Assembly (NCBI GenBank): GCA_963813715.1
Contig: CAWFAK010000005.1
Coordinates: 32,001 to 96,000, forward strand
DNA: 64,000 bases
Reading direction: 5' to 3'
Origin: an uncultured Planctomycetaceae bacterium
GTDB taxonomy: Bacteria > Planctomycetota > Planctomycetia > Planctomycetales > Planctomycetaceae
Positions 23,756 to 64,000 of the stretch are shown here, one piece after another (within the stretch, counting starts at the first letter, position 1; every line of letters begins with the position of its first letter). A program made the position numbers and the translations under genes. The notes beneath the pieces were generated by a model. It worked only from the letters and a program-made list of their open reading frames with translations, had not been told where the DNA came from and searched no databases.

Positions 23756-24308
23756 TTCATCGCTTTTCCGATCCGCAAGCTCTGTCTAGGCTTGCGATTC
23801 TCGGATTGATTGACACGGTCAATTGTGCCAAGACTGTGCCAATCAAACTGGCGGCCGAGCGTTGCGCTGTTGTGGCTCCTGCCTCATCATTTGCCTTCAT
23901 GCTCGGGCCGCCACGCTTCTCCGCAAGGGTCAACTTCGGCCTCGGCATCCTCCCTTTCGTAGAGTCAAGAATGCTCGCCAACGGCCACGCGGCCGCTGGC
24001 ATCACCAAAACAATCGATCCGCTGCATCTGACGTCGGTTTTCGTCATCGTGCAGATGAAAATAATGTCGAACTCATTTTCGAGCTGAAATACCCCAGCCA
24101 GGACATTGCCGTATGATCGGGTGTGCCGGCTTGCGCTGCCACACTGCGAAAGTAATGACGAAAGGAATGCAGGCGCCCGTGCTCGAAGCCGATGGTGCCT
24201 GTTGTCGTTGGGGATCACTCCTTCAATTTGTCGAGCATGTCGCGGATCAGATTAAATTGTTTGGGCTCGGTCGATCCAAATGGTACTTTGACGACGGCGC
24301 AAGCCGCA

Positions 24309-41545: not shown

Positions 41546-41777
41546 CTCATGCGCCCCGTGCCGGAAATACCTCTCGCCGCAAACATTAAGGAAAGTCCAT
41601 TTTGTGCACGATTTTGCGCGAAATGAGACCAGCTATTGTTCACGCTGGATTAAACCTGTCGACACCTCCACGGTTTGATGAACATTTTTTCATAATTTGA
41701 CGCGATGTGCAAGGACGTCGCCCGATGGAGTCGGCCTATGGACTGCTGCCGCTCGTCCGTCCACAGTCACGGCGCCT

Positions 41778-46739: not shown

Positions 46740-49700
46740 CTAGCCGTTGAGGATCTCGACGGCAGCCGAGAAGCCCGCCCACTGATTCTGGGAGTCGTCC
46801 GACGTGGACGTGGGGGGCGACGTCAGCGTGCCGGCGGTCTGCGGCTGAGAACCCGGCGAAGTGGGGCCGCTTGAGCCTACGGTCACCTGGATGGCGCCCG
46901 AAGCCGTGAGCGAATTTCCCAAGTCCGTGTAGCCGATCGCGATCGATGCCGAGCCGACGTAGCCCGTCAACGGCGTGAACGTGAGGTTCTTCAGGGCGTT
47001 GTTGAGGTTGGCCAGCGTACCCGTGATCGTCATCCCCGACGAGCTATTTGCGCCGGAGGTGAAGGTCAGCCCGGTCGTCGAACCGAGCTTGAGCTTGCCG
47101 TTGGTCGCGGAGAGCGTGACCTGTTCGATGCCGGTCCCCGCGTTGACGTCGGTGACGCTGATCAGGTCGTTGTTGGTCTTCGTGAACTGCACGGAGCCGT
47201 TCTCGGCGACCGACGCTGTTGACGGAGCCGTCAGCGTGGGCGCCAACGTAGCGATCGAAAGCGAGACGCTGGTCGAGGCGGACAAACCGTCCGGCGGATC
47301 CGAGACGGAAATCGCCAGCGTGTCAGCGCCCGAGTAGTTGGTGTTTGGCTTGTAGGTCAAGCCGTTGAGCGCGTTGTCGAGGTTGGTGACTGTCCCGGTC
47401 ACGGTGAAGGAGGCACTGCTGTTCTTGCCAGTCGTAAACGTCAAACCGCTCGTGCTGCCGAGCTTCAGCGTGCCGTTCGTCACGGAGAGCGTGAGCGATT
47501 CGGTCTTGATCGTGCCGGCGTTGCCGTCGGTAAACGAGATGGCGTTGCTGTTGGCGGCCGAGAAGACCAGCGTGCTGTTCTCGCTGAGCGAACCGGTCGA
47601 GGGAGCGGTGATTGTCGGGGCAGTGGCGGGTGAGATGGTGATCCCGACGTTGCTGGTGGCCGACTGGCCGTCAGTGGTGTCCAGCAGCGAAATCGCCAGC
47701 GTGTCGGATCCGCTGTACCCCGTCGTCGGCGTATAGGTCAGGCCGGTGAGCGCCTTGTTGAGATTGGCCAAGGTCGCGGCGATCGTGAAGGACGAGCTGC
47801 CGTTCTTGCCCGCCTTGAAGGTCAAACCGGGAGTCGAGCCGAGCGTCAGGATGCCGTTGGTGACCGAAAGGCTGAGCGTGCCGGTTGTCGAATTGGCGTC
47901 GGCGACCGTAATCGCATTGCTGTTGGTCGATGAGAATACGATCGTGACGTTTTCGCCCGTCGCGACGGACGTCGGCGCGGTAATCGTCGGCGGGCTGAGG
48001 GCGTTGATCGTCAGCGCCACGCTGGCCGAGGCTGACTGCTTGTTGACGCCATCGGCGACCGTGATCGAAAGCACATCGGTACCAACGTAGCCGGCGGTTG
48101 GCTTGTAGGTCAGGCCGGCCAGCGCCGCGTTGAGATTGGTCAGCGTCCCCGTCACAGCGATTGTGGCCGCGTTGTTCTTGCCGGTCGTATAGGTCAGCCC
48201 TGTCGTCGAGCCCAACGTCAGGATGCCGTGCGAGACCGACAGGGTCAGCGACTCGGTCTTGGCCGTGCCGGCGTTCACGTCGGTAAACGAGATGGGGTTG
48301 CCGTTGCCCGACGAGAACACGAGCGAACCATTCTCATTCAGCGAGCCCGTCGACGGTGCGGTGAGCACCGGGGGCTGGACGTTGACGGTGAGGGAGACGC
48401 TGGTTGCCGCCGAGTCGTTGTCGCCCGGATCGGCGATCGAGATCGCCAGCGAATCGGAGCCGATATAGGCGGTCGTCGGCGTGTAAGTCAAACCGTTGAG
48501 GGCGTTGTTCAAGCTGCTGACGGTGCCGCTGACGGTGAACGTCGCGGAGCCGTTGCTGCCCGTGGTGAAGGTCAGCCCGGCGGTTGACGCCAGGGTGAGC
48601 GTGCCGTGCGTCACTGCGAGGGTCAGCGAATCGGCACCGGAACCGGCGCCCGAGTCGGTGACAGAGACGGCGTTACTGTTGCCCGACGAGAAGACGAGTG
48701 AGCCGTCCTCAAAGAGCGAGCCGCTGGTCGGAGCGGTGATCGCCGGCGGGCTGAGTGCGACCACCGTCAGGCCGACGCTGGTCGAGGCCGACAGGGTGTC
48801 TGTGGTGTCGATGACGGAGATCAAAAGCGCATCCGAGCCGATGTAGGCCGGGTTCGGCTGATAGGTCAGTCCATTAAGGGCGTTGTCGAGATCGCTCGTT
48901 GCCCCCGTCACGGTGAAGGAAGAGGTGCCGTTGTTCCCGGAGGCAAACGTCAGACCCGAGGTGCCGGCCAACGTCAGCGTGCCGTGGGTTACGGAGAGCG
49001 TGAGCGAGTCGGGGCCGGCCGCCGAGTCCGTGATCGCAATGGCGTTGCCGTTGCCCGTCGAGAAGACGAGCGATCCATTTTCGCTCACCGAACCGGTGGC
49101 GGGCGCGGTCAAGGTTGGCGGCGCGTTGACCGTCAGCGACACGCTGGTCGACGCGCTCACGTTGGCGAGCGGATCGGAGAGCTGGACCAACAGCGAATCG
49201 GGGCCGGCGTAACCCGTGTTCGGGCTATAAGTCAGTCCGGCGACGGCGGCCTGCAGATCGCCGATCGTGCCGGAGACGGTCATCGAAGAGGAATCGTTGG
49301 CACCGGACGTGAAGGTCAGGTTGTTGGTGGAACCGAGCGCGAGCGTGCCCTGGTTGACCGACAGGGTCAGCGTATCGATGTTGGTGCCGGCGATCTGATC
49401 GGTGATGGTAATGGCGTTGCCGCCCGAGAAGACCAGCGAGGTGTTTTCGTTCGTCGACGCCGAGGCCGGGCCGGTCGCGGTCGGCGACCAGTTGATGTTC
49501 GTATTGGCCAGGTCGGGAACGAGCAGGTTGGCGATCGGCGTGCCTAAGCCGCTCACCAGGTCGTATCCAGGCGCCGCGTTGTAGGTGCCGTTGCCGCCAA
49601 CCGTGATATCGTGGAAGTCGGAGCTGGAAAGGTTGTACAACGTCGGCAAGGTCTGCGTGAGGCCGTTGAGACTTGGCTCACCGTTGAGGGCACGTCCCTG

Positions 49701-50831
49701 ATTGGCGATGGAGACGAGCGCGGCAGTCAACGGCGTGGCGAGGCTGGTGCCACCGACCTGGTACCATCCGCCCGAGTAGGTATCGAGGACGTAAACACCG
49801 GTGTCGGGATCCGCGTCCATCGAGATGTCTGGAACATTGCGATTGGTCGTGCTGGCGCCGTTAATACCGTTCAGCCCGTCCTGATAGGCCGGCAGCGGTT
49901 CGTACTGGCTGATGCCGCCGCCGGTGCCGTAACCGTTGTTGTTGTTCCAGACTGATTCGGAGATGTAAGTGCCGTCGGACTGGATCTGCAACGACGTGCC
50001 GCCGACAGCCACGACGTCCGGCGAGAAGGCGGGATAAATCGCAGGCGAATCCCAGTCGCCGGTTGCGGCCAGGAACGTCACGCCGCCCGTGCGCCCGGTG
50101 GGTGTGAGGTCGAAGGGGTCTTCCGACTGCTCGCCCTGGAATTCGTCCTCGCCCCAGCTCATTGACACGACCGAGACAGCCGGATTGGCGGCAGCGGTAG
50201 CCACGGCCTGGTCCATGTCGGGGTCGTTGTTGGTGTTCGACTCGTAGAGGATGATATTCGCCTGCGGGGCGATTGAGTGGGCCCACTCGACGTCGAGCGA
50301 TTCTTCGACGTCCCAGCCCTGTCCGTTGGTGGTCGGCAACGACGTGCCGCCGGTTTGATTGAGCACCTGGAAGGTCGGACCGCCCTGAACGTTGAACTGC
50401 GGCAGATTGAACGTGCTGCTGAAGTTCTGTGCGTCGGTGACGATGTTGGGGTCGTTGTACGCGTCGACGATGGCGATCGTCTGACCTGCGCCGGTGCCGC
50501 TGACGCCGTTAAACGAAATCTGGTTCACGCCGTAAGCAGTGGTCATTTGGGCCGGCGTGTAGGGGGCCGAGGCGACCGTCGTAGCCGGAGTGACGCCGTT
50601 TTTGCCGACGTTCGGCGCGGCAACCTGGCCGGCCACGATGATCGCCGGCTGATAGGCGGCGACGGCCGAGAGCATTTGCCGCGCTTCGAGGGCTTCGACG
50701 ACGGGCCCGCAGCAGACGGGCTGCTGCATGCGGTCAAGTTCTCGTTGATTTCGCCGGCGGGGCACCTTGCGGCCGCGGTAGGTATTTCCTCGGGTCTGCG
50801 AAAAAATCGACAGCCGGCGAGAGAACAGCAT
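46740..50831 (-). CDS. Secreted S53 (sedolisin) peptidase with 7 Ig/cadherin-like repeats
   Basis: Leader LEARQMLS; EESLDVEW (Glu/Asp), AATGD, GGTSLATP (Ser), YDLVSGLGTP (Ca site); seven ~115-aa repeats; C-terminal QWAGF motif. Confidence 0.88.
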   Translation of the reverse strand: MLFSRRLSIFSQTRGNTYRGRKVPRRRNQRELDRMQQPVCCGPVVEALEARQMLSAVAAYQPAIIVAGQVAAPNVGKNGVTPATTVASAPYTPAQMTTAYGVNQISFNGVSGTGAGQTIAIVDAYNDPNIVTDAQNFSSTFNLPQFNVQGGPTFQVLNQTGGTSLPTTNGQGWDVEESLDVEWAHSIAPQANIILYESNTNNDPDMDQAVATAAANPAVSVVSMSWGEDEFQGEQSEDPFDLTPTGRTGGVTFLAATGDWDSPAIYPAFSPDVVAVGGTSLQIQSDGTYISESVWNNNNGYGTGGGISQYEPLPAYQDGLNGINGASTTNRNVPDISMDADPDTGVYVLDTYSGGWYQVGGTSLATPLTAALVSIANQGRALNGEPSLNGLTQTLPTLYNLSSSDFHDITVGGNGTYNAAPGYDLVSGLGTPIANLLVPDLANTNINWSPTATGPASASTNENTSLVFSGGNAITITDQIAGTNIDTLTLSVNQGTLALGSTNNLTFTSGANDSSSMTVSGTIGDLQAAVAGLTYSPNTGYAGPDSLLVQLSDPLANVSASTSVSLTVNAPPTLTAPATGSVSENGSLVFSTGNGNAIAITDSAAGPDSLTLSVTHGTLTLAGTSGLTFASGNNGTSSFTVTGATSDLDNALNGLTYQPNPAYIGSDALLISVIDTTDTLSASTSVGLTVVALSPPAITAPTSGSLFEDGSLVFSSGNSNAVSVTDSGAGSGADSLTLAVTHGTLTLASTAGLTFTTGSNGSATFTVSGTVSSLNNALNGLTYTPTTAYIGSDSLAISIADPGDNDSAATSVSLTVNVQPPVLTAPSTGSLNENGSLVFSSGNGNPISFTDVNAGTAKTESLTLSVSHGILTLGSTTGLTYTTGKNNAATIAVTGTLTNLNAALAGLTYKPTAGYVGTDVLSITVADGVNKQSASASVALTINALSPPTITAPTSVATGENVTIVFSSTNSNAITVADANSTTGTLSLSVTNGILTLGSTPGLTFKAGKNGSSSFTIAATLANLNKALTGLTYTPTTGYSGSDTLAISLLDTTDGQSATSNVGITISPATAPTITAPSTGSLSENSTLVFSAANSNAISFTDGNAGTIKTESLTLSVTNGTLKLGSTSGLTFTTGKNSSASFTVTGTVTNLDNALNGLTYKPNTNYSGADTLAISVSDPPDGLSASTSVSLSIATLAPTLTAPSTASVAENGSVQFTKTNNDLISVTDVNAGTGIEQVTLSATNGKLKLGSTTGLTFTSGANSSSGMTITGTLANLNNALKNLTFTPLTGYVGSASIAIGYTDLGNSLTASGAIQVTVGSSGPTSPGSQPQTAGTLTSPPTSTSDDSQNQWAGFSAAVEILNG

Positions 50832-50901
50832 GCTTCGGGCTCCAACGGCTAATTGGGCAATGGGTTGTGATTCGGAGGGATGCTGCAAGCGCGACTCGAA
50901 G

Positions 50902-50995
50902 GGTGCTGGCCCAAGCACCGGGCGCGTAGGAAGAACTCCTGACGCCATTCGAGAGTCGTGCCTCACAGTTTGCCGTCGCGAGGAGCCGGTGACAA
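50902..50995 (-). promoter_or_regulatory. Promoter (TTGTCA-N17-CAAACT) and 5'-UTR hairpin GGTGCT-TGGGCC-AGCACC of S53 gene 1
   Basis: Same architecture upstream of all three S53 paralogs. Confidence 0.6.
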
Positions 50996-51218
50996 CGCGC
51001 CGGTCGCGAGATTTCTGTGAATTTTCTGAAGGGAAGCAGGCCGCTCTAAGAACCGAACGTCAATCGCGGCAGAAGTGGACAGACGAGCACGGTAAAACGC
51101 CAGAAACCATGCGCGCCCGGATGGTTTTCGACCGTCCCCGTAGCGCGCGCTGCCTTCCATCTGCGGCGCACCGGAGGTCACCGCGGAAATTCGTTCACGC
51201 GAACGACCGGCGCGGACG

Positions 51219-54200
51219 TTAGTTGATCAGGAACTCGAGGGCTTGGAGAAAGCCAGCCCATTGAGTCTGTGCGTCGATCGGTGTGGACGCGTCCCCGTCG
51301 GCGCTTCCGCCCGTCGTGGCGGGATTGGTCAGCGACAGGGTCGCCCCTCCGGTCACCGGCACAAACTGGCGGTCGCCTTGCACCGGAGCCGGCGTCACAA
51401 CGAGCGAGCGGGATGCCCGGCCGTTGCGGCTAACGGTGAGGGCGATGCTGCCTGTGCCTGTCAGGCCGTCACCCGCGTCCGTGTAGCTCAGTGAGATCGA
51501 GGCCGAACCGGTGAAATTTCGAGTCGGCGTGTAGGTGAGGCCGTTGAGGGCGTTGTTGAGATTGGTCAGCGTGCCGCTGATCGTCATCGAGGCAGAGCGG
51601 TTAGCCCCGGATGTGATCGTGATGCCGCTCGTCGATCCGAGACGCAGGGTGCCGTGCGTGGCTGTGAGCGTCAGCTTCTCGGTGCTGGTGCCCGCGCTGG
51701 CGTCGGTGATGGTGATCGACTTGGAGAAGGCGACGGAGCCGTTCTCGGCGACCGAGGCTGTGGCTGGAGCCTTGATCGTCGGCGCGACAGCCGCGTTCAC
51801 GGTGAGGGTCACGCTATCCGACGCGGACAAACCATCGCCCGGATCGGAAATCGAGATCGACAGCGAATCGGAGCCGGAATAATTGGTCGCCGGCTTGTAA
51901 ACCAGTCCATTGAGAGCCGCGTCGAGGTTGGCGATCGTTCCGGTCACCGTCACCGTCGACGAACCGTTCGCGCCGGCGGTGATCGTCAGGCCGGAGGTGG
52001 AAGCCAAGGTCAGCGTGCCGTGCGTGACGGCCAGGGTCAGCGAGTCGGTGCTGCCGGCGCTCGAGTCGGCGACTGAAATCGCGTTGCCGTTGGTCGACGA
52101 GAAGGTCAGAGAACTGTTCTCGTTGAGCGAACCGCTCGTGGGAGCGGTGATCGCGGGCGGGACTGGCGGCCGTAACGGTCAGGCCGATGCTGTCCGAATC
52201 CGAGAGGCTATCGCCCGGATCGGAAAGTGAAATCCCCAGCGTGTCCGAGCCGGAATAGCCGGCCGTCGGCTGATACGTGAGGCCGTTGAGGGCCGCATTG
52301 AGGCTGGACAAAGTGCCGGTCACGGTGAACGCCGCCGTGCCGTTGCCGCCCGTCGTAAACGTCAGCCCGGTCGTCGAGGCGAGCGTCAGAATTCCGTTCG
52401 AGACCGTGAGCGTGAGCGAATCACTGCCGCTGCCGGCGCTCGCATCCGTCAGCGTGATGGCGTTGCCCTTGCCCGTCGAGAAGACGAGCGAGGAATTCTC
52501 AGCGACGGTGGCCGTACTGGGAGCAGTGATCGTCGGCGGCGTGGGCGCGTTCACGCTCAGCGACACGCTGGCCGAGGCCGACAGGCTGTCGCCCGGATCG
52601 GTGACCGAAATCGCCAGCGAATCGGAGCCGGCATAACCCGCAGTCGGCTGATAAACGAGTCCGGCGAGCGCCGCATCGAGGCTTGAGACGGTGCCGGTCA
52701 CAGTGAACGAGGACGAGTCGTTGCTGCCAGATGTGAAGGTGAGTCCCGACGTGGTCGACAACGTCAACGTGCCATGCGAGACGGACAGCGTCAGCGAATC
52801 GGCGTTGGTGCCGGCGCTCGCGTCGGTGACGCTGATGGCGTTCCCGTTGGCCGACGAGAAGGTCAACGAGCCATTTTCGGCCAAGCTTGCCGACGCGGGG
52901 GCGCTGACGCTCGGCGGTTGCGTTGTGCCGTATCCCGCCAGGGCGGGGACGAGCAAATTGGCGATTGGCGTGCCCAGTCCGGTGACCAGATCGTAACCCG
53001 TCCCGGCCGAGTAGGTGCCGTTGCTGCCGGTTGTGATGTCGTGGAAGTCGGAACTGGGCAATTGGTAGAGCGTCGGCAGTGTTTGCGTCGCGCCGTTGAG
53101 GGATGAATCGCCCAAGAGGGAGCGTCCCTGGTTCGCGATGGCGATCAGGCCGCCCCACATCGGCGTCGCGAGGCTCGTCCCGCCGACCTGGAACCAGCCA
53201 CCGTCGTAGCTATCGAGGACGTAGACGCCGCTGTTGGGGTCGGCATCCATGGCGACGTCGGGCACGTTGCGATGCGTCGTGCTCGCACCGTTGACGCCGT
53301 TGAGCGAGCTTTGATAGCTGGGGATGGTCTCGTATTGGCTGATCCCGCCGCCCGTATCGGACCAGGCGCCCTCGGCGATGTATTGGCCGCTGCTGTTGAT
53401 ATCCAAAGTCGTGCCGCCGACGGCCACGACGTCGGGACTGAACGCCGGATATCCCGAAGGCGTGCCGTCATCGCCGGTGGCCGCCAGGAAAGTGACGCCC
53501 TGATGACCGTTGGGCGTGACGAAGTTGGAATCGAAGCCGGTCTCCGAGGAGCTTTCGCCGCCGTCCCAGCTCATCGACACGACCGAAACGCCGGCGTAAT
53601 CGGCCGCCGTGTCGACGGCCTGGAACAGGTTCGCGTCGGAGTTGGAAGAAGCCTCGAAGAGGATGATGTTCGCATCGGGGGCGATCGAGTGAGCCCACTC
53701 GACGTCGAGCGCTTCTTCAACGTCCCAGCCCCCCTTGGCCGCGTTGGCCGGCAGCGACGTGCCGCCCGTTTGATTCAGGACCTTGAGCGTGGGCTCGCTG
53801 CTGCCGTTGAACTGCGGCAGACCGAATTGGCTGCTGAAGCTATTGGCGTCGGAAATGATGTCCGGATCGTTGTACGCGTCGACGATGGCGATCGTCTGGC
53901 CGGCCCCGGTTCCTGCGACGCCGTTAAAGGAAATCTGGTTGATCCCGTAGGCCGCCTGCATCTGGGCCGGATCGATGGGGGCGGTGCCGGCCGTGACAGC
54001 CGGTTTGTTGGTCGCCGCGCCATGGGCCTCGAGAATAAAGGTCGGCGTGGCGACGGCGGTGAGGGCGGACGCGGCAGAGAGCATCTGGCGGCCTTCGAGC
54101 GTCTCGGCGGCCGGACCGCAGCAGACCGGCTGGCCGATGCGTGCCGCGTCGCGTCGACGTTTCAGCGGTCGACGAGAGCGGGAGGACGACGGGCGGACGA

Positions 54201-54237
54201 AGTTGGACAAAAACGGAAACCGAAGCGACAACAGCAT
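51219..54237 (-). CDS. Secreted S53 peptidase with 4 Ig/cadherin-like repeats; frameshift near 52160
   Basis: GGAGG RBS; LEGRQMLS leader; EEALDVEW, AATGDD, GGTSLATP, YDLVTGLGTP; repeats continue in ORF 51219..52007, ending QWAGFLQALEFLIN. Confidence 0.86.
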
Positions 54238-54304
54238 CCTACCGGCCTCCTGTGGCGGGTGAATTTGACCGTCAGGTGTTCGCCAAACACGAACTGAGTC
54301 AGAA

Positions 54305-54398
54305 GGTGCCGGCCCAGACACCCGTCCTAAAGAAAATCGTCGGACGATTTTCTGCCCAGTCACACCAATAGTCTGCCCGTCGGCGAACTGGAGATCAA
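54305..54398 (-). promoter_or_regulatory. Promoter (TTGATC-N17-CAGACT) and 5'-UTR hairpin GGTGTC-TGGGCC-GGCACC of S53 gene 2
   Basis: Conserved across the paralogs; also a perfect 10-bp inverted repeat AGAAAATCGT/ACGATTTTCT at 54331-54353. Confidence 0.6.
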
Positions 54399-54436
54399 CT
54401 TAGCCCAATTACGTCAAAAAGTGCTTCCAATCAACC

Positions 54437-57400
54437 TCAACCGGCCAGCACTTGCATTGCGGCCGCAAACCCCGCCAGCTGCGTTTCGGAGTCCGGAGGC
54501 AGGGTGCTGGTCGAGAGCGAGTTAGCCGAAGGGACGCTCGACGAGGCCGGTCCCGCGGGCGCGCCTGCCTGCAGGATCGTGCTCGACGAGACGGTGATGT
54601 TGGCCGTCACCGACTGGTTGGTTGCGAGGTCGGTGTAGGCCAGGGTGATCGTTGCCGCCTTCGCCTGCAGCGTATAGGTCATCCCGTTGAGGGCCAGATT
54701 CAGGTTGGCCAGCGTTCCCTCGATGGTCATCGACGCAGAACCATTGGCCCCGGAGATAAACGTAATCCCAGTCGTGCTGGCGAGTTGCAAGATGCCCGAA
54801 GTCGCCTTGATTGTCAGTTCTTCGGTGCTGCTGCCGGCGCTCCCGTCGGCAATGCTGATCGCATCTCCCTTGGCGGCGGAGAAAGTGGTCGTGCCGCCAA
54901 CTGTCGACCTGACGCTGGTCGGTGCGCTGATCGAAGGCGGGGCACTACCCGAAACGTTGATCGACACGCTGGCCGAGCCCGACAGGTGATCCGCCGAATC
55001 ATTGATCGCCACGGCGAGCGAGTCGGCACCCGTATAGTTGCTGGTCGGCTTGTAGGTCAGTCCGGCAAGCGCCGCGTTGAGGTTGGTGATTGACCCCGTG
55101 ACCGTGACCGTGGACGACCCGTTAGCGCCGGCCGTGATCGTCAGGCCCGAGATCGTCGACAAAGTCACCGTGCCATGCGAGACCGTCAACTGCAGCGAAT
55201 CCGAACCGCTTCCCGGCCCTGCATCCGCGACTGAAATCGGGTTGCTGTTGCCCGACGAGAAGACCAGCGAGCCGTTCTCAGGCACCGTAGCCGATCCCGG
55301 AGCTGAAACCGTCGGCGGGCTGTTGGCGTTGACCGTGATGGCCACGCTCTTCGAGGCCGACTCGCTGTCGCCGGGGTCCAAGAGAGAAATCGCCAGCGAA
55401 TCGGAGCCGGTGTAGCTGGTCGTCGGCGTATAGGTAAGGTTGTTGAGGGCCGCATTCAAACTGGTGACGGCGCCGGTCACGGTGAAGGACGCCGAGCCGT
55501 TGCTCCCGGCCGTAAACGTCAGGCCGCTGATCGTCGAGAGTGTGATCGTCCCGTGAGCGACCGACAGGGTCAGCGTATCGCTGCTGCTGCCGGCCGCCGA
55601 GTCGGCCACGCTGATCGCGCTCGAGGAGAAGATCAGCGAATTGTTGACGAGCACCGAGGCCGTCGCCGGCGCGGTAATCGTCGGCGCCGGCAAGGAGTTG
55701 ATGCTCAGCGAAACGTTCTTCGAGGCCGACTGGCCATCGCCCGGATCTTGGAGCGAAATCGCCAGCGTATCGCTGCCCGTGTAAGCGGCCGTCGGCTGGT
55801 AGGTAAGGCCGTTGAGGGCCGCGTTGAGGTTGCCGACCGTGCCACTCACTGTGAAGGTGGCCGAACCGTTGCTGCCGGACGTGAACGTCAGACCGGACGT
55901 GGTGGAAAGCGTCAGTTTGCCGTGCGCGACCGCCAGCGTGAGCGAGTCGCTGCCGGGATTGGCGTCGGCGAGCGAGATTGCGTTGCCGTTGCCGGTCGAG
56001 AAGGCCAGCGACCCGTTCTCCGTGAGCGAGGCCGAAACTGGCGCCGCGATCGTCGGGGCCAGCGCGCTGACTGTGATGGCCACGCTGCCAGAGCCAGTTT
56101 TGTTGTCGGTCGGGTCGCTGACGGAGAGGGCCAGCGTGTCGGAACCGGCGTAATTCGTCGTCGGCTGGTAGGTCGTTCCTACCAGGGCGGCGTTCAAGTT
56201 GGCTACGGTCCCCTTGACCGTGAAGGCGGCGGAGTCGTTCGAGCCCGAGCTGAAAACCAGTCCATTGGTGGTGCCCAAGGTCAGGGTGCCGTGGCTGACC
56301 GACAAACTCACCGAATCTGCGCCGAAGCCCAACCCGTCGTCGGTCAGCGAGATCAAGTTGCCGTTACCCGTCGAGAAGACGAGCGAGCCATTCTCCGCTA
56401 CGCTAGCCGTAGAAGGCGCCGTGAAGGTGGGGGCGATCGGTGCGACCGTGATCGAAACGCTGGAGGAGCCGGTCAGGCTTTCGCCTGGGTCGGTTAGCGA
56501 CACCAGCAGCGAGTCGGCGCCGCTGTAATACGTGGTCGGTTGATAGGTCAGACCGGAACTGTCCAGATCCGCGTTCAGGTTGGCGATGGTCCCGCTCACC
56601 GTGAACGAAGAGGAGCCGTTCGTCCCGGACGTGAACGTCAGGCCGGTGGTCGAGCCGAGCGTCAACGTTCCGTCGGAGACCGAGAGCGTGAGCGAATCGG
56701 CAGCACCGGCGGAGAACGGATCGGTCAGGGTGATCGCGTCGCTGTTGGCCGTCGAGAGTGTCGCCGACCCGTTTTCGGCCACGTTGAGCGTGGACGGGTT
56801 GCTCACGGCAGGCGCAGTCGAACCGTATCCCGCCAACGCGGGCACGAGCAGATTGGCGACGGGAGTGCCCAGCCCAGTGACCAGATCGTAACCCGGCGCA
56901 GCCGAGTAGGTGCCGTTGCTGCCGGTCGTGACGTCGTGGAAATCGGAACTCGGCAGGCTGTAGAGCATCGGCAGGGTTTGCGTGTACCCGTTGAGCGTCG
57001 ATTCGCCCGCGAGCGCCCGTCCCTGGTTGACGATGCCGATCATGCCGGCCCACAACGGAGAACTGAGGCTCGTGCCGCCCACCTGGAAGTAGCCGCCACC
57101 TTGCCCTTCGTTCCATGTGTCATAGACGTAGACGCCACTGTCGGGATCGGCGTCAGCCGAGACGTCGGGAACGTTACGGTTCGTGGTGCTCGAGCCGTTG
57201 ATGCCGTCGAGGTTGTCCTGGTAATAGGGCAGCGCTTCCTGCGTGCTGATGCCGCCGCCCGTGGCCCAACCATTGTTGTCGTTCCAAACCGATTCTGAGA
57301 TGTACGTGCCGCTGTTCTGAATCTGCAGGTTGGTGCCGCCCACGGAGACGACGTAGGGCGAGTACGCCGGATAGCCGGCGGGGCTGCCCGAGTCGCCGGC

Positions 57401-58183
57401 CGAGGCCAGGAAGGTGACCCCCTGGTGGCCGGTCGGCGTCTGGAAGTATTGGTCTTCGGAAGTCTCGCCGGAGAATTCGCCTTCGCCCCAGCTGTTGGAG
57501 ATCACGGAGACGCCGGGCCAACCGGCGGCGGTGACTTCGGCCTGGTCCATGTCCGGGTCGTTGGCCGTGGTCGACTCGAACAGGATGACGTTGGCCTCCG
57601 GCGCCATCGAGTGCACCCACTGCACGTCGAGTGATTCCTCGAGGTCCCAGTCGCCGACTGTCGTGTTGGTGTTCATCGGCAGCGTCGTGCCGCCGTTTTC
57701 GTTCAGCACCTGAAACGTCGGACCGCCGGAGTTGAATTGCGGCAAGCCGAATCGCGTGTTGAAGGTGGCCGTGTCGGAGACGATGTTCGGATCATTGTAG
57801 GCGTCGACGATGGCGATCGTCTGTCCGGCGCCGTTGCCGACAATTCCGTTGAAGGAAATCAGGTTCACGCCGTAGGCCGTCTGCACCTGCGACGGCGTGT
57901 AAGGCGCCGAGGCGTTGTCGGGCGAATTCGTGGGCTTCACGCTTCCAGGAGCCGCGACGCGGCCCAGGTTGATCAACGTCGGCACGGCGATGCCGGCGGC
58001 GGTGGCGGAAACGGCCGCCGAGAGCATTTGCCGCCCTTCGAGTTCCTCGACGGTCGGTCCGCAGCAAATCGGACCAGGAATGAATGCCGTGTCTCGTCGG
58101 CTGCGTCGACTCAGGTGCCGCTTGAACCGGACAGGCTTGGACCCGATTTTGCGCGAAATCGTGAGCCGCCTAGAAAACAACAT
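54437..58183 (-). CDS. Secreted S53 peptidase with 6 Ig/cadherin-like repeats
   Basis: LEGRQMLS leader; EESLDVQW, ASAGDS, GGTSLSSP, YDLVTGLGTP; C-terminal QLAGFAAAMQVLAG. Confidence 0.88.
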   Translation of the reverse strand: MLFSRRLTISRKIGSKPVRFKRHLSRRSRRDTAFIPGPICCGPTVEELEGRQMLSAAVSATAAGIAVPTLINLGRVAAPGSVKPTNSPDNASAPYTPSQVQTAYGVNLISFNGIVGNGAGQTIAIVDAYNDPNIVSDTATFNTRFGLPQFNSGGPTFQVLNENGGTTLPMNTNTTVGDWDLEESLDVQWVHSMAPEANVILFESTTANDPDMDQAEVTAAGWPGVSVISNSWGEGEFSGETSEDQYFQTPTGHQGVTFLASAGDSGSPAGYPAYSPYVVSVGGTNLQIQNSGTYISESVWNDNNGWATGGGISTQEALPYYQDNLDGINGSSTTNRNVPDVSADADPDSGVYVYDTWNEGQGGGYFQVGGTSLSSPLWAGMIGIVNQGRALAGESTLNGYTQTLPMLYSLPSSDFHDVTTGSNGTYSAAPGYDLVTGLGTPVANLLVPALAGYGSTAPAVSNPSTLNVAENGSATLSTANSDAITLTDPFSAGAADSLTLSVSDGTLTLGSTTGLTFTSGTNGSSSFTVSGTIANLNADLDSSGLTYQPTTYYSGADSLLVSLTDPGESLTGSSSVSITVAPIAPTFTAPSTASVAENGSLVFSTGNGNLISLTDDGLGFGADSVSLSVSHGTLTLGTTNGLVFSSGSNDSAAFTVKGTVANLNAALVGTTYQPTTNYAGSDTLALSVSDPTDNKTGSGSVAITVSALAPTIAAPVSASLTENGSLAFSTGNGNAISLADANPGSDSLTLAVAHGKLTLSTTSGLTFTSGSNGSATFTVSGTVGNLNAALNGLTYQPTAAYTGSDTLAISLQDPGDGQSASKNVSLSINSLPAPTITAPATASVLVNNSLIFSSSAISVADSAAGSSSDTLTLSVAHGTITLSTISGLTFTAGSNGSASFTVTGAVTSLNAALNNLTYTPTTSYTGSDSLAISLLDPGDSESASKSVAITVNANSPPTVSAPGSATVPENGSLVFSSGNSNPISVADAGPGSGSDSLQLTVSHGTVTLSTISGLTITAGANGSSTVTVTGSITNLNAALAGLTYKPTSNYTGADSLAVAINDSADHLSGSASVSINVSGSAPPSISAPTSVRSTVGGTTTFSAAKGDAISIADGSAGSSTEELTIKATSGILQLASTTGITFISGANGSASMTIEGTLANLNLALNGMTYTLQAKAATITLAYTDLATNQSVTANITVSSSTILQAGAPAGPASSSVPSANSLSTSTLPPDSETQLAGFAAAMQVLAG

Positions 58184-58317: not shown

Positions 58318-58458
58318 GACTTAACGCGCGTCACTTATCCAAAATCCGCGCAGCACAATTAGTCCCCGTCAAAGTCCCCCGGCATCGGTCCCCACGGATG
58401 GTCTCGCGACCACGTCAGACACCCAAGCTGGGCGACTTCGGGCCGGGTGCTCGTGCGT

Positions 58459-61400
58459 TTAGACTTCGGAGTCGGGCGGGATGGAACTCGTTGCGGGGCC
58501 AGTTGTTGTGTTTGACGACGGCGAATTTCCCAGGGTCGTATTCCCGAAGAGGGTCACCGTGGTGGAGGACGTTCCCTGCCCTCCCGTCACCAGGTTGGTG
58601 TAGACCATCCCGATCGTCTGACTCTTTCCCGTGAGCGTATACGTCAGCGTGGCAAGGGCGGCGTTGAGGTTGGCCAGCGTTCCCTGGACGACCATCTGCA
58701 TCGAGTTGTTGGCACCTGACACAAAAGTCAGCCCGGTGGTCTTGCTCAGGTTCAGTGTGCCCCCCGAGTCCTTGATCAGGAGCTGTTGCACGCCAGTCCC
58801 GGCGCTCGGGTCCGTGATGCTGACCGCGTCGGTCCCGGTGAAGCTCACCGCGTCGGATCTCGTCAAGATGGCCGTGGGCGCCTTGATGGCCGGCGCCGTG
58901 CTGCCGGTGACACTTAACGTGACGTTGGCGGAAGCCGACTGCCCATCGGACGAATCCTTGATCGCCACCGACAGCGTGTCGGGACCTGTGTAGCCGGTCG
59001 ACGGCTGATAGACCAAGCCGTTCAAGGCCGCGTTGAGATTGACCAGCGAACCGGTGACAGTGATCGTGGTCGAGCCGTTCGCTCCCGAGGTGACGGTCAA
59101 CCCCGTGGTGCTTGCCAGCGTCACCGTGCCGTGGGAAACGGTGAGCGTCAGCAAGTCGGAACCGTTCCCGGGACCACTGTCGGCCACCGAGACGGCATTG
59201 TCGGTGGCCGGCTCGAAGACCAGCTCTCCGTTCTCACTGACCACGGCGCCGCTGGGAGCCGTGATCGTCGGGGGCAAGAACGCGGTAATCGTCAGGGCCA
59301 CACTGGTCGACGCCGACTCATTGTCTCCCGAATCGGAAATCCCAATCGAGATTGCAGCGGCACCCGAGTAACCGGACGTGGGACGATAGATCAGACCGTT
59401 GAGCGCGGCATTGAGGTTGGCAAGCGTGCCGGCCACGGTGAACGAGGCCGTGCCGTTGGTCCCGGCCGTAAAGGTGAGCCCTGTCGTGGAGGCCAAGGTC
59501 AACGTGCCGTGAGTGGCGGTGAGCGTTAGCGAGTCGGTGTTGGCGCCGATCCCCGTGTCGGCGACGGCAATCACATTGCCGTTCGTCGCGGAGAAGGTCA
59601 GCGATCCGTTTTCGGCGAGAGCGGCCGTGGCGGGCGCGGTGACGCTCGGCGGAGCCAGGCCGACAATGCTCAGCGACACGTTCGCGGAAGCGGACTTGTT
59701 ATCGCCCGTATCGGTGATCGTGATCGCCAGCGTGTCGGCGCCGGTGTAGCCCGATATCGGCTGGTAGGTCACGCCGTTGAGGGCCGCATCCAAGTTGGTG
59801 ACGGTTCCGCTCACGGTCATCGAGGCGGAGTCGTTGCTGCCGGCCGTGATCGTCAAGCCGGTCGTGCTGGCCAAGGTCAGCGTGCCGTGCTGCACCGAGA
59901 GCGCCAGCGAATCGGTGCCCGGATTGGCATCACTAACGGTAATGCCGTTGCCGTGGGAACTCGCGAAGGGCAGCGCGGTGTTCTCATTCAGCGAGGCGCT
60001 CGACGGAGCTGTGATCGTCGGAGCCAGAGCATTGACAGTCAGCGCGACCGACGCGGAACCCGACTTGCCGTCATTCGAGTCCACCACCGAGATCGACAGC
60101 GTGTCCGAACCGGCAAAACCGGTCGCCGGCTGATAAGTCAAACCGTTGATGGCGGCGTTGAAGTTCGCCACCGTCCCCTTCACGCTGAACGAAGAGGAGC
60201 CGTTGAAGCCGCTGACGAACACCAGTCCGTTGGTCGAACCAAGGGTCAAGATGCCGCTGGAGACGGACAGCATCTCCGTATCGGCGCTGGTGCCGGCGCC
60301 GTTGTCCGTCAGGGTGATCGGGTAGCTGCTGGTTGTCGAGAAGGTGAGCGTGCCGTTCTCGATGACGGCGGCCGTTATTGGCGCGCTGATCCCCGGAGCG
60401 GCGATCGCGTTGATGGTCAGCGCAACGCTGCTGGTGGCCGACAGGCCGTCCCCCGGATCGCGGAGCAACACGGTCAACGTGTCCCCACCGGTGTAACTGA
60501 AGTTGGGCTGGTAGCTCAGGCCATCGAGGGCGGCGTTGAGATTGCCGATCGGCCCGCTGACGGTGAACGAGTTGGAGCCGTTGGTGCCGCTGGTGAAAGT
60601 CAGGCCGGTTGTCGCTCCCAGCGTCAGGGTGCCGTTTGCCGCGGAGACGGTCATCGAATCGGAGCCGCTCGCGCCGAGGTCAGTCACGCTAATCTCGTTG
60701 CCGAAAGCCGAGGAGAAGGTGAGGGCCGTATTCACGGTCGTGCTGCCGGTCGACGGACCGCTCACGGTGGGTAGAGCCTTCACGCTGAGCGAGACGGAGG
60801 TCGCGGAGGACTTGCTGTCCGCCAGGTTGGTAATCGTCAGGGACAGCCCATCAGAGCCGAAGTAATTAGCCGTGGGCTGGTAGATCAGGCCGTCGAGCGC
60901 CATGTTGAGGTTGCTGAGCGAGCCGGTCACGGTGAACGAACTTGTGCCGTTCGTGCCCGACGTGAAGGTCAAGCCGAAGGTCGTGTGCAACGAGAGCGTG
61001 CCGTGCGTGACAGAGAGCGCCAGCGCATCGCCGCCAGCGTTGACGTCGCTGACGGAAATCGAGTTGCCGTTCCCCGTCGAGAAGACGAGCGACTGGTTGG
61101 CCCCGACGATGGCCGAACTCGGCGCAGAAACCAGCGGCGCCAAGGCGTTGACGATCAGCGAAACGGTCGTGCCGCCGGAGAGATTGTCCGCCTGGTCCTG
61201 GTCCGAGAGGCTCAGCGTGTCGGTGCCGTAGAATCCCGCGGTCGGCGTATATGTGAGGCTGGCCAGATCGGCGTTGAGGTTCGGCAGCAGGCCGGTCAGG
61301 ACGACGGTCGCGCTGTTGTTTCCCGTCACCGTCAGCCCGGTCGTCGTTGCCAGATCGAGCGTGCCGTCGCCGACCGACAGCGTCAGCTGCTCGTCCGAAC

Positions 61401-64000
61401 CGCTCACGTCGCCTACGGTGATCGCATTGCCGGCAGTAAAGGTCACACTGCCGTTTTCGGCGACGCTAATGCCGCCGGTGGGAGCCGTGATGGTGGGAGA
61501 CACCGGCACCACGGTGATTGACACGGTGGTCGTTCCCGTCAGACTGTTGCCGGTATCCGTGTCGGACAGCGACAGCACGTCGGGGCCGAGGTAGCCGGAC
61601 GTCGGCGTGTAGGTGAGGGTCGCCAGGTCACTGTTCAGGTTGGACAGCGAGCCGGTCAGCGTGAGCGAGGTGGAACCGTTGCCGACGACCGTCAGTCCGG
61701 TCATCGTCCCCAGAGTAAGGGTGCCGTTGGTCACCGAGAGGACCAGTTGTTCGGCCGTCCCACTGGGATCGACGACGCTGATCGCGTTGCCCCCGCTCAA
61801 CGTCAGGCTGCCGTTCTCGTTGACCGTCACGCCTGTGGGGACTTTGAACGTCGGCGCGACCGGGGTAATCGTGATCGAGACGCTGGCCGAGTTGATCAAC
61901 TCGTCGGTCGTGTCCTTCACGGAGAGCGACAGCGTGTCGGCGCCCAGGTAACCGGTGGTCGGCGTGTAGACGAGCGTGGGCAAGTCGTTATTGAAATTGG
62001 TCAGCGAACCGGTCAGGGTCAGCGTTTTCGTGCCGGCTCCGGACACCGTGAGGCCCGCCGTGGTGGTCAGGTTGAGCGTGCCATTGCTCACAGTGAGCAC
62101 CAGCTGCTCGGCCGTGCCGCTGGTGTCCGCAAGGCTGATCGCATTCTGCCCGTTGAAGACGAGAGTGCCGTTCTCGTTAACGCTGACGGCCAAGGGCGCG
62201 GTGATGGTCGGAGCGAACGCGGTGTTCGAGAACGGGTTGGAGGCGATACCGTCCGCGATGACGACAATCGTGAACGGGTCGTTGCCGATGGCGGCCGGCA
62301 GCACGACGTTGGCCGTTTCGGGCGTGCTGCCGGTGGCGACGCCGACCGAGCTCCAATCTGAGGTCGTCGCGTAGTAAACGGTCCCCGTGCTGGTGTCGAC
62401 CACCCGCACGATGGGATAGTTCTCCGCCATCTGGTTGTCGTCGCCGTAGGACGCCCCTTCGTCGAGTCCGTTGAGCTGCGTTCCCGTCAGCGTGTAGTCG
62501 TTGCCACTCTGCTGCGTGAAGCTGGTGATGGTCGGTTGCCAGGACGCCTGCGGACTCCCGTTGGGCGTGTAGACGGCGAGCTGATTGTTGTCGTCGGTCA
62601 GCAGCAGCTGTCCCGTCGGCAGGATGAGGAACGTATTGATAAAGCTGTTACTGTCACTGAGGAACGGATCGACGGTCGCCGAGGGCGTAATGTTCGTCCA
62701 GACGTCGGCCGTCGTGTTGAGGTCGTAGATATAGGTCGGCCCCGGGAATTGTTCCTCCCCGGTGTTGTCGATGTAGACCGCGGGCGAAAGCGCCAGCACG
62801 ACGTCCCCATTGGGCAGGATGGCGCCCGGCGCGTCGCCTGTCGTAAGCTGCGTCATGACGCCGTTGATCATGACAGAGGGCATCGTCGGGCCCTGCGTCC
62901 AGGAGTTCGTGCCTGGATTGTAGAGCGCGGTCGTGCCGTTGGTTCCAGTGAAGAGCGCGTCTCCATTGGCCAGCAGAAGCGCGGGGCCCAACTCATAACC
63001 CGTGCCCTCCGTCGAGAGCAGGGGAATCGTGCCGACCGTGCTGCTGGCGTCGGACCAGGTATTCGTGCTGGGGTTATACAGCTCGGCCTCGAACTTGTTG
63101 TCGGTGATGCTCGAGAAGAGGTCGTAGGTGAGGATGTCGCCGTTGGCCAGCTTCACCCACGCCTCCTCGTCGCTCTGGTCGTTGTGGACCTTGGTGCCGC
63201 CCGCGCTCCACGCATTCGTGGTTGGGTCGTAAATCTCGGTGCCGTTGTCTTCGATGTCGCCCACGAGGACGTTGCCATCCGGCAGGAGCTCGGTCGGTTC
63301 GTCCCCGACAATCGACTTCGGACTGCTCGCCACCATCGTCCACTTGCTGGTGACCGGATTGTAGATTTCGGCGGAATTCGAGAAATTCTCGTCGGTCGCA
63401 TACTCGCCGCCCACGACGAAGACTTCGCCGTTAGGCAGCACGGTGGACCCGAAATAAAGACGTCCGACATTCATCGAGCCCGCCACCGTCCAGGTCCCGT
63501 CGACGTAGCTGCCGGTGCTGTCGGGCGTGACCAGATACCAACTGGTAGAAGGGCCGTTGCCGCCGCCTCCATGCACGAAGAGTTGACCGTTGGGAAGCAA
63601 AAGACTCAACTGGCCCGCGTCCCCCTGCGGAACCGCGTTCGACATGGCGGTCCAGTTCTGCGACACCGGCGCGATGACGGTCAGCGGCACGGTCTTCGAC
63701 GCCGATTGGTTCGTCCCCGGATCCAGCAACGTCACCGACAGCGTATCGCCGCCCAAGTAATTGGTCGCCGGCTGAAAGGTCAGCCCGTTGAGGGCGGCGT
63801 CCAGGTTGGTGACCGTTCCGCTCACCGTGAACGAAGCCGAATTGTCGGTGCCGCTCGTGAAGGTGAGACCGTTGGTCGTCGCCAGGCTCAACGTCCCATG
63901 CAACACGGCAAGGGAGAGCGAGTCGGCATTGGTGCCGGCACTCGTGTCCGTGACATCGATGGCGTTGTTGTCGGCCGTGGAAAACGTCAGCAAGTTGTTT
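58459..64000 (-). CDS. Giant secreted repeat protein with Kelch-type beta-propeller domain and at least 11 Ig/cadherin-like repeats (5' end outside window)
   Basis: Kelch blades (LPNGEVFVVGGE..AEIYNPVTSKWT, LPDGNVL..EIYDPTTNAWS, LANGDIL..ELYNPSTNTWS, LANGDAL..LYNPGTNSWT); 10 repeats after the propeller and at least 1 before it; the frame is open to the window edge. Confidence 0.85.
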   Translation of the reverse strand, partial: NNLLTFSTADNNAIDVTDTSAGTNADSLSLAVLHGTLSLATTNGLTFTSGTDNSASFTVSGTVTNLDAALNGLTFQPATNYLGGDTLSVTLLDPGTNQSASKTVPLTVIAPVSQNWTAMSNAVPQGDAGQLSLLLPNGQLFVHGGGGNGPSTSWYLVTPDSTGSYVDGTWTVAGSMNVGRLYFGSTVLPNGEVFVVGGEYATDENFSNSAEIYNPVTSKWTMVASSPKSIVGDEPTELLPDGNVLVGDIEDNGTEIYDPTTNAWSAGGTKVHNDQSDEEAWVKLANGDILTYDLFSSITDNKFEAELYNPSTNTWSDASSTVGTIPLLSTEGTGYELGPALLLANGDALFTGTNGTTALYNPGTNSWTQGPTMPSVMINGVMTQLTTGDAPGAILPNGDVVLALSPAVYIDNTGEEQFPGPTYIYDLNTTADVWTNITPSATVDPFLSDSNSFINTFLILPTGQLLLTDDNNQLAVYTPNGSPQASWQPTITSFTQQSGNDYTLTGTQLNGLDEGASYGDDNQMAENYPIVRVVDTSTGTVYYATTSDWSSVGVATGSTPETANVVLPAAIGNDPFTIVVIADGIASNPFSNTAFAPTITAPLAVSVNENGTLVFNGQNAISLADTSGTAEQLVLTVSNGTLNLTTTAGLTVSGAGTKTLTLTGSLTNFNNDLPTLVYTPTTGYLGADTLSLSVKDTTDELINSASVSITITPVAPTFKVPTGVTVNENGSLTLSGGNAISVVDPSGTAEQLVLSVTNGTLTLGTMTGLTVVGNGSTSLTLTGSLSNLNSDLATLTYTPTSGYLGPDVLSLSDTDTGNSLTGTTTVSITVVPVSPTITAPTGGISVAENGSVTFTAGNAITVGDVSGSDEQLTLSVGDGTLDLATTTGLTVTGNNSATVVLTGLLPNLNADLASLTYTPTAGFYGTDTLSLSDQDQADNLSGGTTVSLIVNALAPLVSAPSSAIVGANQSLVFSTGNGNSISVSDVNAGGDALALSVTHGTLSLHTTFGLTFTSGTNGTSSFTVTGSLSNLNMALDGLIYQPTANYFGSDGLSLTITNLADSKSSATSVSLSVKALPTVSGPSTGSTTVNTALTFSSAFGNEISVTDLGASGSDSMTVSAANGTLTLGATTGLTFTSGTNGSNSFTVSGPIGNLNAALDGLSYQPNFSYTGGDTLTVLLRDPGDGLSATSSVALTINAIAAPGISAPITAAVIENGTLTFSTTSSYPITLTDNGAGTSADTEMLSVSSGILTLGSTNGLVFVSGFNGSSSFSVKGTVANFNAAINGLTYQPATGFAGSDTLSISVVDSNDGKSGSASVALTVNALAPTITAPSSASLNENTALPFASSHGNGITVSDANPGTDSLALSVQHGTLTLASTTGLTITAGSNDSASMTVSGTVTNLDAALNGVTYQPISGYTGADTLAITITDTGDNKSASANVSLSIVGLAPPSVTAPATAALAENGSLTFSATNGNVIAVADTGIGANTDSLTLTATHGTLTLASTTGLTFTAGTNGTASFTVAGTLANLNAALNGLIYRPTSGYSGAAAISIGISDSGDNESASTSVALTITAFLPPTITAPSGAVVSENGELVFEPATDNAVSVADSGPGNGSDLLTLTVSHGTVTLASTTGLTVTSGANGSTTITVTGSLVNLNAALNGLVYQPSTGYTGPDTLSVAIKDSSDGQSASANVTLSVTGSTAPAIKAPTAILTRSDAVSFTGTDAVSITDPSAGTGVQQLLIKDSGGTLNLSKTTGLTFVSGANNSMQMVVQGTLANLNAALATLTYTLTGKSQTIGMVYTNLVTGGQGTSSTTVTLFGNTTLGNSPSSNTTTGPATSSIPPDSEV

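Follow-up and report, generated by a model that had tools for sequence, protein, structure and literature searches.

Several C-terminal sorting tags of bacterial surface proteins, namely PEP-CTERM with its exosortase, LPXTG with sortase and GlyGly-CTERM with rhombosortase, were found by comparative genomics, as reported elsewhere (PMC1569441, PMC3237569). In planctomycetes, a motif at the opposite end of the protein, RRLxxExLExRxLLA, has been named a 'cell surface signal peptide' (Studholme et al. 2004, cited in PMC8567305); the latter paper describes proteins with an equivalent motif in Tuwongella as largely recovered in the envelope fraction soluble in sodium dodecyl sulphate, and words the N-terminal LExRxLL motif only as 'thought to represent' an export signal. 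Here we describe a short C-terminal tail, called the tag below, which is encoded by three neighbouring genes in a stretch of 64,000 nucleotides (the window) from an uncultured Planctomycetaceae bacterium (assembly GCA_963813715.1, contig CAWFAK010000005.1, positions 32,001 to 96,000). Similar to the tags found by comparative genomics, it is lineage-restricted, short, C-terminal and present on many unrelated secreted proteins of one genome. However, in tags of this group a signature motif precedes a transmembrane helix and a run of basic residues, and cleavage is by a membrane enzyme, whereas the tail described here has neither a membrane-length hydrophobic span nor a cluster of Arg or Lys. Lineage-specific C-terminal tags are a known kind of element, from which the tail differs in the absence of a membrane anchor segment and in being shared with a probably cytoplasmic signalling protein.

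The three large-protein genes (genes 1 to 3) are consecutive on the minus strand and have a common build, with a basic N-terminus followed by an S53 peptidase domain, repeats, a linker and the tail. The peptidase is of the kumamolisin/sedolisin type (match to kumamolisin-As, E 3.1e-33), and the several repeats, of about 95 residues each, match the tandem-95 (NF012211), Big_9 (PF17963) and cadherin-like families of Pfam and NCBIfam. The linkers are low-complexity stretches of Pro, Ser, Thr, Gly and Ala, in which the paralogs differ and no conservation is seen. Gene 1 ends, at 46740-46805 on the minus strand, with TSDDSQNQWAGFSAAVEILNG and a stop, and gene 2, at 51219-51281 on the same strand, with PIDAQTQWAGFLQALEFLIN and a stop. 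Considering all tails collected, the consensus is D-x3-Q-W-A-G-(L/V/F)-(S/A/T)-A-A-(V/L/M/I)-(E/D/Q)-(V/I/L/M)-L-(N/...)-x-stop, with a conserved core of about 13-18 residues (Q-W-A-G-L-s-A-A-v-E-i-L-n), in which a single Gly and a single Ala never change and the residues W, A and L are present in at least 90% of the sequences. The tails fall into subgroups that track the type of the protein upstream (Table 1).

The earlier note on this window, made from the sequence alone, had described a shared C-terminal motif behind unconserved linkers; the tails as it gave them are confirmed, and the motif is genuine, strictly C-terminal and modular. In the genome itself, which is 82.6% complete (7.49 Mb; 70,502 six-frame open reading frames (ORFs) of at least 60 aa), a strict regular expression had six matches, five of them ending six residues before a stop and the sixth internal, in a probably non-coding frame; with a relaxed expression and profile hidden Markov models (HMMs) the total came to eight tails. 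The tail of gene 1 scored E 6e-11 with a 20-column HMM and 1.6e-12 with a 62-sequence HMM. When the former was applied to 40 related genomes, all 11 congeneric genomes were matched, ten of them with 2-12 hits at E<1e-3 and the eleventh, 65% complete, only weakly (E 0.32). The position was C-terminal in all 60 hits fetched out of the 63 with E<1e-3 from the ten genomes, 54 of them with 0-2 trailing residues and six with 4-19, and two weaker hits that were inspected are likewise genuine terminal tails. The hits are neither internal nor random, and they are not limited to paralogs of the window genes, as they include non-paralogous architectures. A weak internal HMM match (L129) corresponds to helix alpha-1 of a response-regulator receiver domain, a chance likeness to an ordinary helix.

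The tail has a narrow distribution. Among the 29 genomes of other genera nothing was found below E 0.008, and the 62-sequence HMM, run on another 400 genomes of the phylum from 288 genera, matched none of them at E ≤ 1e-3. A degenerate DNA pattern for QWAG(L/F)xAA(V/I/M)(E/D)xL, scanned over 185,579 one-per-species genomes, was met at 15 loci, of which 13 lie in metagenome-assembled genomes (MAGs) titled Planctomycetaceae bacterium and are each followed by two codons and a stop. The other two are internal and evidently due to chance, one in a protein resembling extracytoplasmic function sigma factors from a Myxococcota MAG and one in a Proteobacteria MAG. At the protein level, a word-indexed library searched with a 44-column alignment returned 38 proteins, with the tail terminal in 38/38, and a library of 1.84 billion cluster representatives, built from about 15 billion proteins, gave 72 matches at E ≤ 1e-3 when searched exhaustively. 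The match is terminal in 68 of these; three of the rest resemble read-through or frame-shifted ends, and one is a low-complexity false hit. The tail recurs beyond chance and is found in one genus only, of uncultured soil Planctomycetaceae; it is not a signal of the Planctomycetota as a whole. No description of the tail was found in family libraries or in the literature, which is weak evidence of novelty, as a sequence motif cannot be searched for by meaning.

The conservation of the tail acts on the peptide. As seen in 64 distinct tail-coding sequences, the invariant Gly is written with four codons, used 30, 16, 13 and 5 times, the invariant Ala also with four and the near-invariant Leu with five, indicating selection on the protein and not on the DNA; a DNA or RNA element at the gene ends as the cause of the conservation is ruled out by the same synonymous variety. 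This bears on the idea that the tail is a structural cap or passenger, which would merely close a C-terminal cassette of last repeat, linker and tail that recombination has spread among paralogs, and would have no function of its own. In agreement with it, several carriers also resemble one another in the repeat that precedes the linker, and a fourth related gene of the window (gene 4) has lost the tail and is otherwise still an open frame. However, the tag keeps its sequence next to a freely varying linker, it stands behind unrelated domains that include PKD modules and the core of a PilZ-family protein, and the codon variety at its invariant residues reflects purifying selection across at least 11 species, which together leave the passenger idea highly improbable.

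Gene 4 ends with PPDSEV before its stop, and the tag is missing exactly at the boundary between linker and tail. Its tail-coding piece has been lost or replaced, as the DNA similarity between genes 4 and 3 stops right after the PPDSE codons and gives way to unrelated sequence (58459-58480 and 58380-58460). Kelch proteins of related genomes (P0026, P0028, P0040), unlike gene 4, retain the tag.

Regarding the proteins that carry it, the tag is found in the same genome on a PhoPQ_related (E 1.1e-92) plus PKD protein and on a protein composed of NHL, He_PIG, Big_3_5 and tandem-95 domains, and in the databases on Kelch and PKD proteins. The co-occurrence with LExRxLL leaders, which the earlier note had suggested examining, is supported: a motif of this type lies within the first 250 residues of 26 of the 35 open frames that bear a tail and span at least 900 aa, and three of the nine without it hit a contig end. 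Tag-bearing database proteins without the leader start inside repeats and are therefore truncated calls. The leader of the tag carriers seems to correspond to the published planctomycete signal: genes 1-3 fit a regular expression of the RRLxxExLExRxLLA type, and the Planc_extracel family (PF07595) aligns where expected, though weakly, scoring 12.0-12.9 bits where the cut-off is 25.5. Like the tag, this leader is a lineage-specific terminal motif of large surface proteins, present on most tag carriers, but it occupies the opposite end and is spread over the phylum, whereas the tag is limited to one genus and to part of the leader proteins. The leader pattern occurs in 36 frames of the genome, some of them clearly non-coding; about 30 real carriers are estimated against eight tails, and therefore the tag marks a subset.

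Preceding the tag, the PKD-type carriers have a conserved module in common, about 60 aa long (DPFN-x-SQTALFVGGT-x-GNDTV...GPLIVFGQGGKDTV; L001:6207-6400 and relatives), with two GGxGND-like motifs and five short strands in the AlphaFold2 model (predicted local distance difference test (pLDDT) 75-84), for which there was no Pfam match and no fold match in the PDB.

In the surface carriers the order is that of an enzyme head, a stalk of repeats, a linker and the tag, placing the tag where an anchor or sorting signal would be expected. One described counterpart of such a layout is the dockerin-cohesin system of cellulosomal and other surface enzymes, in which, as with the tag, a small C-terminal module behind a Pro/Thr-rich linker is borne by many different enzymes of an organism and one receptor is expected. 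The dockerin, however, has a calcium-binding fold that is duplicated and takes up about 60-70 aa, and the tag is a single helix of about 18 aa, without a Pfam match, without a known cohesin-like partner, and present also on a probably cytoplasmic protein. A purely extracellular, non-covalent anchor of the dockerin kind, in which the tag binds a surface receptor or scaffold after export and the head is held off on its stalk, would account for the arrangement of head, stalk, Pro/Thr-rich linker and tag, as known from dockerin-bearing and wall-anchored enzymes, for the many-to-one pattern of many carriers and one tag, and for the cell-surface leader that carriers bear. It accounts poorly for the same tag on a PilZ-family protein without a leader, there is no match to a dockerin or anchor family, and no scaffold candidate was found; this anchor is an alternative that we regard as somewhat unlikely.

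The PilZ-family protein is small, about 190 aa (L003:2061-2636), and is composed of a conserved β-rich core, a variable linker, the tag and 4-19 further residues. Its core is present in 10/11 congeneric genomes and appears weakly in 2/29 of the others. PilZ domains are defined by the motifs RxxxR and D/NxSxxG, both of which are kept by paralogs of the small protein, and one paralog (L132, 40% identity, E 3.7e-20) passes the PilZ cut-off with 23.6 against 22.5 bits. A profile of the small protein found nothing among the PDB sequences (best E 1.3). In one species (L044, G003:C1:3380235-3381785) the linker contains seven tandem SASLER repeats, and elsewhere it is short and different, indicating that the linker evolves freely. 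The small protein is probably cytoplasmic. The FtsZ C-terminal peptide has the same layout, a folded domain with a variable disordered linker and a short conserved peptide that becomes helical once docked, and the small PilZ-family protein shares it exactly. Peptides of the FtsZ type, however, are cytoplasmic and belong to one protein family, while the tag is borne by many exported proteins of different families.

As for its structure, the tail looks like a helix that would be mostly buried in a partner. On a helical wheel, W1, L4, V8 and L11 form one face and A2, G3, A6 and A7 another, and only S, E and N are polar; such a helix would be suited to burial on account of the apolar face, the invariant small face and the presence of three polar positions only, and the burial would take place in a groove or bundle of the partner; the helix would not be made for lying on a membrane. 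In the AlphaFold2 model of the C-terminal 105 aa of the PhoPQ_related plus PKD carrier, a small β module (pLDDT 75-84) is followed by a linker below 50 and by a tail helix (H79-104, about 26 residues, pLDDT 53-57) that is not packed on the module; a Foldseek search of this model against the PDB had no match (best E 0.45, template modelling score about 0.16). For the small PilZ-family protein, modelled from six orthologs, the helix is H162-183 and the mean pLDDT of the whole model is 40, too low for a fold search to be of use. The 'amphipathic helix' of the earlier note is then retained in one half: a helix is predicted, at low confidence, and the amphipathicity is not borne out, the tail being mostly apolar and the hydrophobic moment of the three tails not exceeding that of shuffled sequences (59%, 13% and 77% of shuffles reach it). 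The free C-terminal carboxylate is not required, as the tails of the small proteins carry 4-19 residues beyond the match and the final two residues vary among sequences.

The same residues have been considered for a module of self-association, in which tags bundle into homo- or hetero-oligomers and join the proteins into complexes or fibres. The large W1, L4, V8 and L11 and the small A2, G3, A6 and A7 fit tight helix-helix packing, and oligomerisation was also among the proposals of the earlier note. On the other side, a conserved core of about 13-18 residues is little for a coiled coil that has to form autonomously, and self-association is judged unlikely.

The tail was compared with several described C-terminal signals. 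No C-terminal signal family covers the tail at E ≤ 0.01 in the whole window proteins (five window ORFs in the case of NCBIfam), and the last 60 aa of gene 1 match no Pfam or NCBIfam family at E ≤ 1, in accordance with the lack of likeness to PEP-CTERM, LPXTG, the type IX secretion C-terminal domain, repeats-in-toxin (RTX) proteins and autotransporters that the earlier note had stated. For PEP-CTERM and GlyGly-CTERM, the tails end in AAVEILNG, with about 13 moderately apolar residues including a Glu and with no basic cluster; for LPXTG and sortase, no pentapeptide, hydrophobic span or positive tail is read and there is no family match. The type IX C-terminal domain is a folded β-sandwich of about 70-100 aa and the β-barrel of type V autotransporters has about 250-300 aa. 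The conserved part here is about 18 aa behind a disordered linker, with no match of the Por_Secre_tail type in Pfam or NCBIfam, and repeats, a linker and the tail of 18 aa make up the C-terminal region, with no Pfam match to an autotransporter β-domain. A dockerin (PF00404) was also discarded, as there is no Pfam match and the tail is a single helix without a DxDxDG-type loop.

Type I secretion, in which the tail would be read by an exporter of the ATP-binding cassette (ABC) family together with a membrane-fusion protein and TolC, needs a closer comparison. The tag lies at the extreme C-terminus and is independent of the last residues, the substrates would be large, acidic, free of cysteine and rich in tandem-95/Big_9 repeats (in their mature parts, the window proteins lack cysteine and have a pI of about 4.1, which agrees with export), and GGxGND-like motifs stand a short way upstream of the tail in the PKD subgroup. 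Type I signals lie uncleaved within the last 50-60 residues, and the position of the tag agrees with this. The giant repeat adhesins LapA, SiiE and MpIBP resemble the carriers in these respects, with a C-terminal element on large, acidic, cysteine-free chains of Ig-like repeats, and in LapA-type adhesins the surface display is reported to be controlled by cyclic diguanylate (c-di-GMP) (PMC3032545). The tag carriers differ from such adhesins, since they have an N-terminal leader, which is normally absent from type I substrates, no RTX motif in the window proteins and no type I component over the cut-offs. RTX repeats are common, not obligatory, in type I substrates, and type I signals are usually unconserved in sequence, unlike the tag; genes 1, 3 and 4 contain no GGxGxD motif, with no HemolysinCabind match, and no transporter gene is nearby. 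Concerning the curated models, PrtD (TIGR01842) had 0/41 genomes over its cut-off, generic ABC exporters matching everywhere and hence not discriminating; HlyD (TIGR01843) reached at best 51.3 bits in the own genome against 208.65, and HlyB (TIGR01846) at best 319.3 against 725.55; the genome is 82.6% complete, and divergent systems could escape these models. A classical type I signal is accordingly very unlikely.

The reading that we prefer, tentatively and short of calling it probable, is that the tag serves as a tethered peptide for docking or sorting, whose single partner is specific to the genus and probably accessible from the cytoplasm. Because the linker is variable, the peptide on unrelated proteins is constrained and its carboxylate is not needed, the tail can be read as a docking motif for a shared partner. 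The tag would then act as an autonomous docking peptide on a disordered, freely varying linker and would bring otherwise unrelated proteins to a common partner existing in this genus alone. This partner may be part of a route of export to, or retention in, the envelope, and it would be reachable from the cytoplasm mainly because the leaderless PilZ-family protein carries the same tag. For the surface proteins the tag could be a sorting label for export, retention or both, and the PilZ-family protein would reach the same partner through its own copy, so that recognition of the tag may be tied to c-di-GMP. Among secretion, anchoring and oligomerisation, which the earlier note had left side by side, the evidence does not single out one function, and no partner or machinery was found; the leaderless carrier does not fit a purely extracellular anchor. 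The data show the motif with its terminal position, its modularity, its confinement to one genus and the selection on the peptide, and from these the docking of a helix, the common partner, the compartment and a c-di-GMP link are inferred.

Several points weigh against this docking reading. The partner it calls for was found in none of the searches, and the surroundings of the tagged genes (the window and 18 kb beyond) have no secretion-related gene, transporter or candidate receptor, the neighbours being unrelated: Ada/AlkA, MGMT, an adenylation gene resembling those of non-ribosomal peptide synthetases, a multicopper oxidase and a thiolase-like gene. The tail helix is of low confidence in both AlphaFold2 models. 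A tag of one genus could also be a young and dispensable module, as gene 4 lost it. Regarding the small protein, the Pfam PilZ family (PF07238) matches only at E 0.15 and in 1/6 orthologs; RRFRR is present, and in place of D/NxSxxG there is a degenerate GMSVDG (GxSxxG), so that a binding of c-di-GMP is unproven. No leader was seen on it, as read from open frames, and its gene is flanked by no conserved neighbours and by no transporter or candidate receptor.

A more specific form of the docking reading, which we consider doubtful, is that a genus-specific receptor for export or retention reads the tag on the cytoplasmic side and that the tag copy of the PilZ-family protein, as a c-di-GMP sensor, competes for this receptor or gates it. 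If true, it would be a new way to couple the level of a second messenger to the display of surface enzymes and adhesins, and a starting point for learning by which route the LExRxLL proteins of planctomycetes, devoid of a classical signal peptide, exit the cell. The export and retention of very large planctomycete surface proteins is an unsolved problem, for which a second and sharply defined terminal label on a subset of the leader proteins is a concrete bait for a sorting, anchoring or secretion partner. The restriction to one genus limits the generality of the tag, yet it makes phylogenetic profiling unusually clean.

Table 1. Tagged genes of the window with their parts, the related gene 4, and the subgroups of tails
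Feature	Positions	Strand	Description
Gene 1	46740..50831	-	LExRxLL leader, kumamolisin-like S53, about 9 tandem-95/Big_9 repeats, linker, tag
Gene 1 start (probable)			ATG of MLFSRRL; gives 1363 aa, as in database relative P0012
Gene 1 tag	46740..46799	-	DDSQNQWAGFSAAVEILNG and stop; read directly; best tail-HMM match of the genome
Gene 1 linker	46800..46880	-	Low-complexity Pro/Ser/Thr/Gly; direct reading, boundaries approximate
Gene 1 leader	50664..50696	-	EALEARQMLSA; Arg-rich stretch and CCGP motif before it; PF07595 12.0 bits against cut-off 25.5
Gene 2	51219..54237	-	Architecture of gene 1; in two frames, ORFs 51814-54363 and 51219-52007
Gene 2 tag	51219..51278	-	IDAQTQWAGFLQALEFLIN and stop; direct reading and tail HMM
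Gene 2 leader	54073..54105	-	ETLEGRQMLSA; PF07595 Planc_extracel 12.8 bits
Gene 3	54437..58183	-	Leader, S53, tandem-95 repeats, linker, tag
Gene 3 length			1248 aa from MLFSRRL; same as database entries P0030 and P0031
Gene 3 tag	54437..54496	-	PDSETQLAGFAAAMQVLAG and stop; Leu in place of the usual Trp
Gene 3 leader	58016..58048	-	EELEGRQMLSA; PF07595 12.9 bits
Gene 4	58459..64000, past window edge	-	S53, tandem-95, Kelch, tandem-95; S53 N-terminus in L128:3-1157
Tail subgroup, tandem-95 giants			PPDA-x-TQW(A/Q/K)G
Tail subgroup, one S53 lineage			IDE-x-NYWAGL...NRP
Tail subgroup, PKD proteins (longer)			G-x-G-L-K-N-x-x-Y-L-L-E-S-P-T-A-D-N-x-E-x-D-L-D-x-E-A-x-QWAGL...EILNA
Tail subgroup, small PilZ-family protein			FDEFAHWAGV...LLRA

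The carriers belong to a widespread soil population, as 20 public runs, all labelled as soil or rhizosphere metagenomes and belonging to 17 studies, have contigs with the gene 2 stretch, whole or in part. In two studies, most of gene 2 with its tail end is also covered by contigs from RNA libraries (X16 record 15, 51200-52153), which suggests its transcription but falls short of proof, since DNA may be present in such libraries; stretches of gene 2 that these contigs leave uncovered (for example 52163-52269 in X16) are uninformative. The contigs also bear on the two frames of gene 2 (51814-52178): at 52159/52160, contigs of two DNA runs have one base fewer, and in one from an RNA library four bases are lost on balance, so the frameshift is particular to this assembly or strain. 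Other genes of the assembly are also split between frames, namely an adenylation-domain gene (39396-41632), L004:4969-5468 and L099:1501-1570; the assembly probably carries single-base indel errors or strain-specific frameshifts.

The N-termini of genes 1-3 have a CCGP motif together with E-x-L-E-x-R-Q-M-L-S-A. In all three S53 paralogs, the motif P-(V/I)-C-C-G-P lies a few residues before the LExRQML leader (about 50700-50715, 54110-54125 and 58052-58067, minus strand); it is absent from the other leader proteins of the genome and has no lipobox fit. Its cysteines are the only ones of gene 1, and the GTG-started frame of gene 3 has two more, upstream of the probable ATG.

Some 200 bases beyond the 3' end of a tag-bearing frame of 1340 codons, a frame of 53 codons holds a second copy of the tag (L038, L081; G005:C2:2505558-2510626); either a 3' end was duplicated and left this remnant, or the frame is a mini-gene consisting of linker and tag only. 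In addition, a large serine recombinase with Resolvase and Recombinase domains is encoded at 22322-23785 on the minus strand and may mark a mobile element, at a distance of about 23 kb to the tagged genes.

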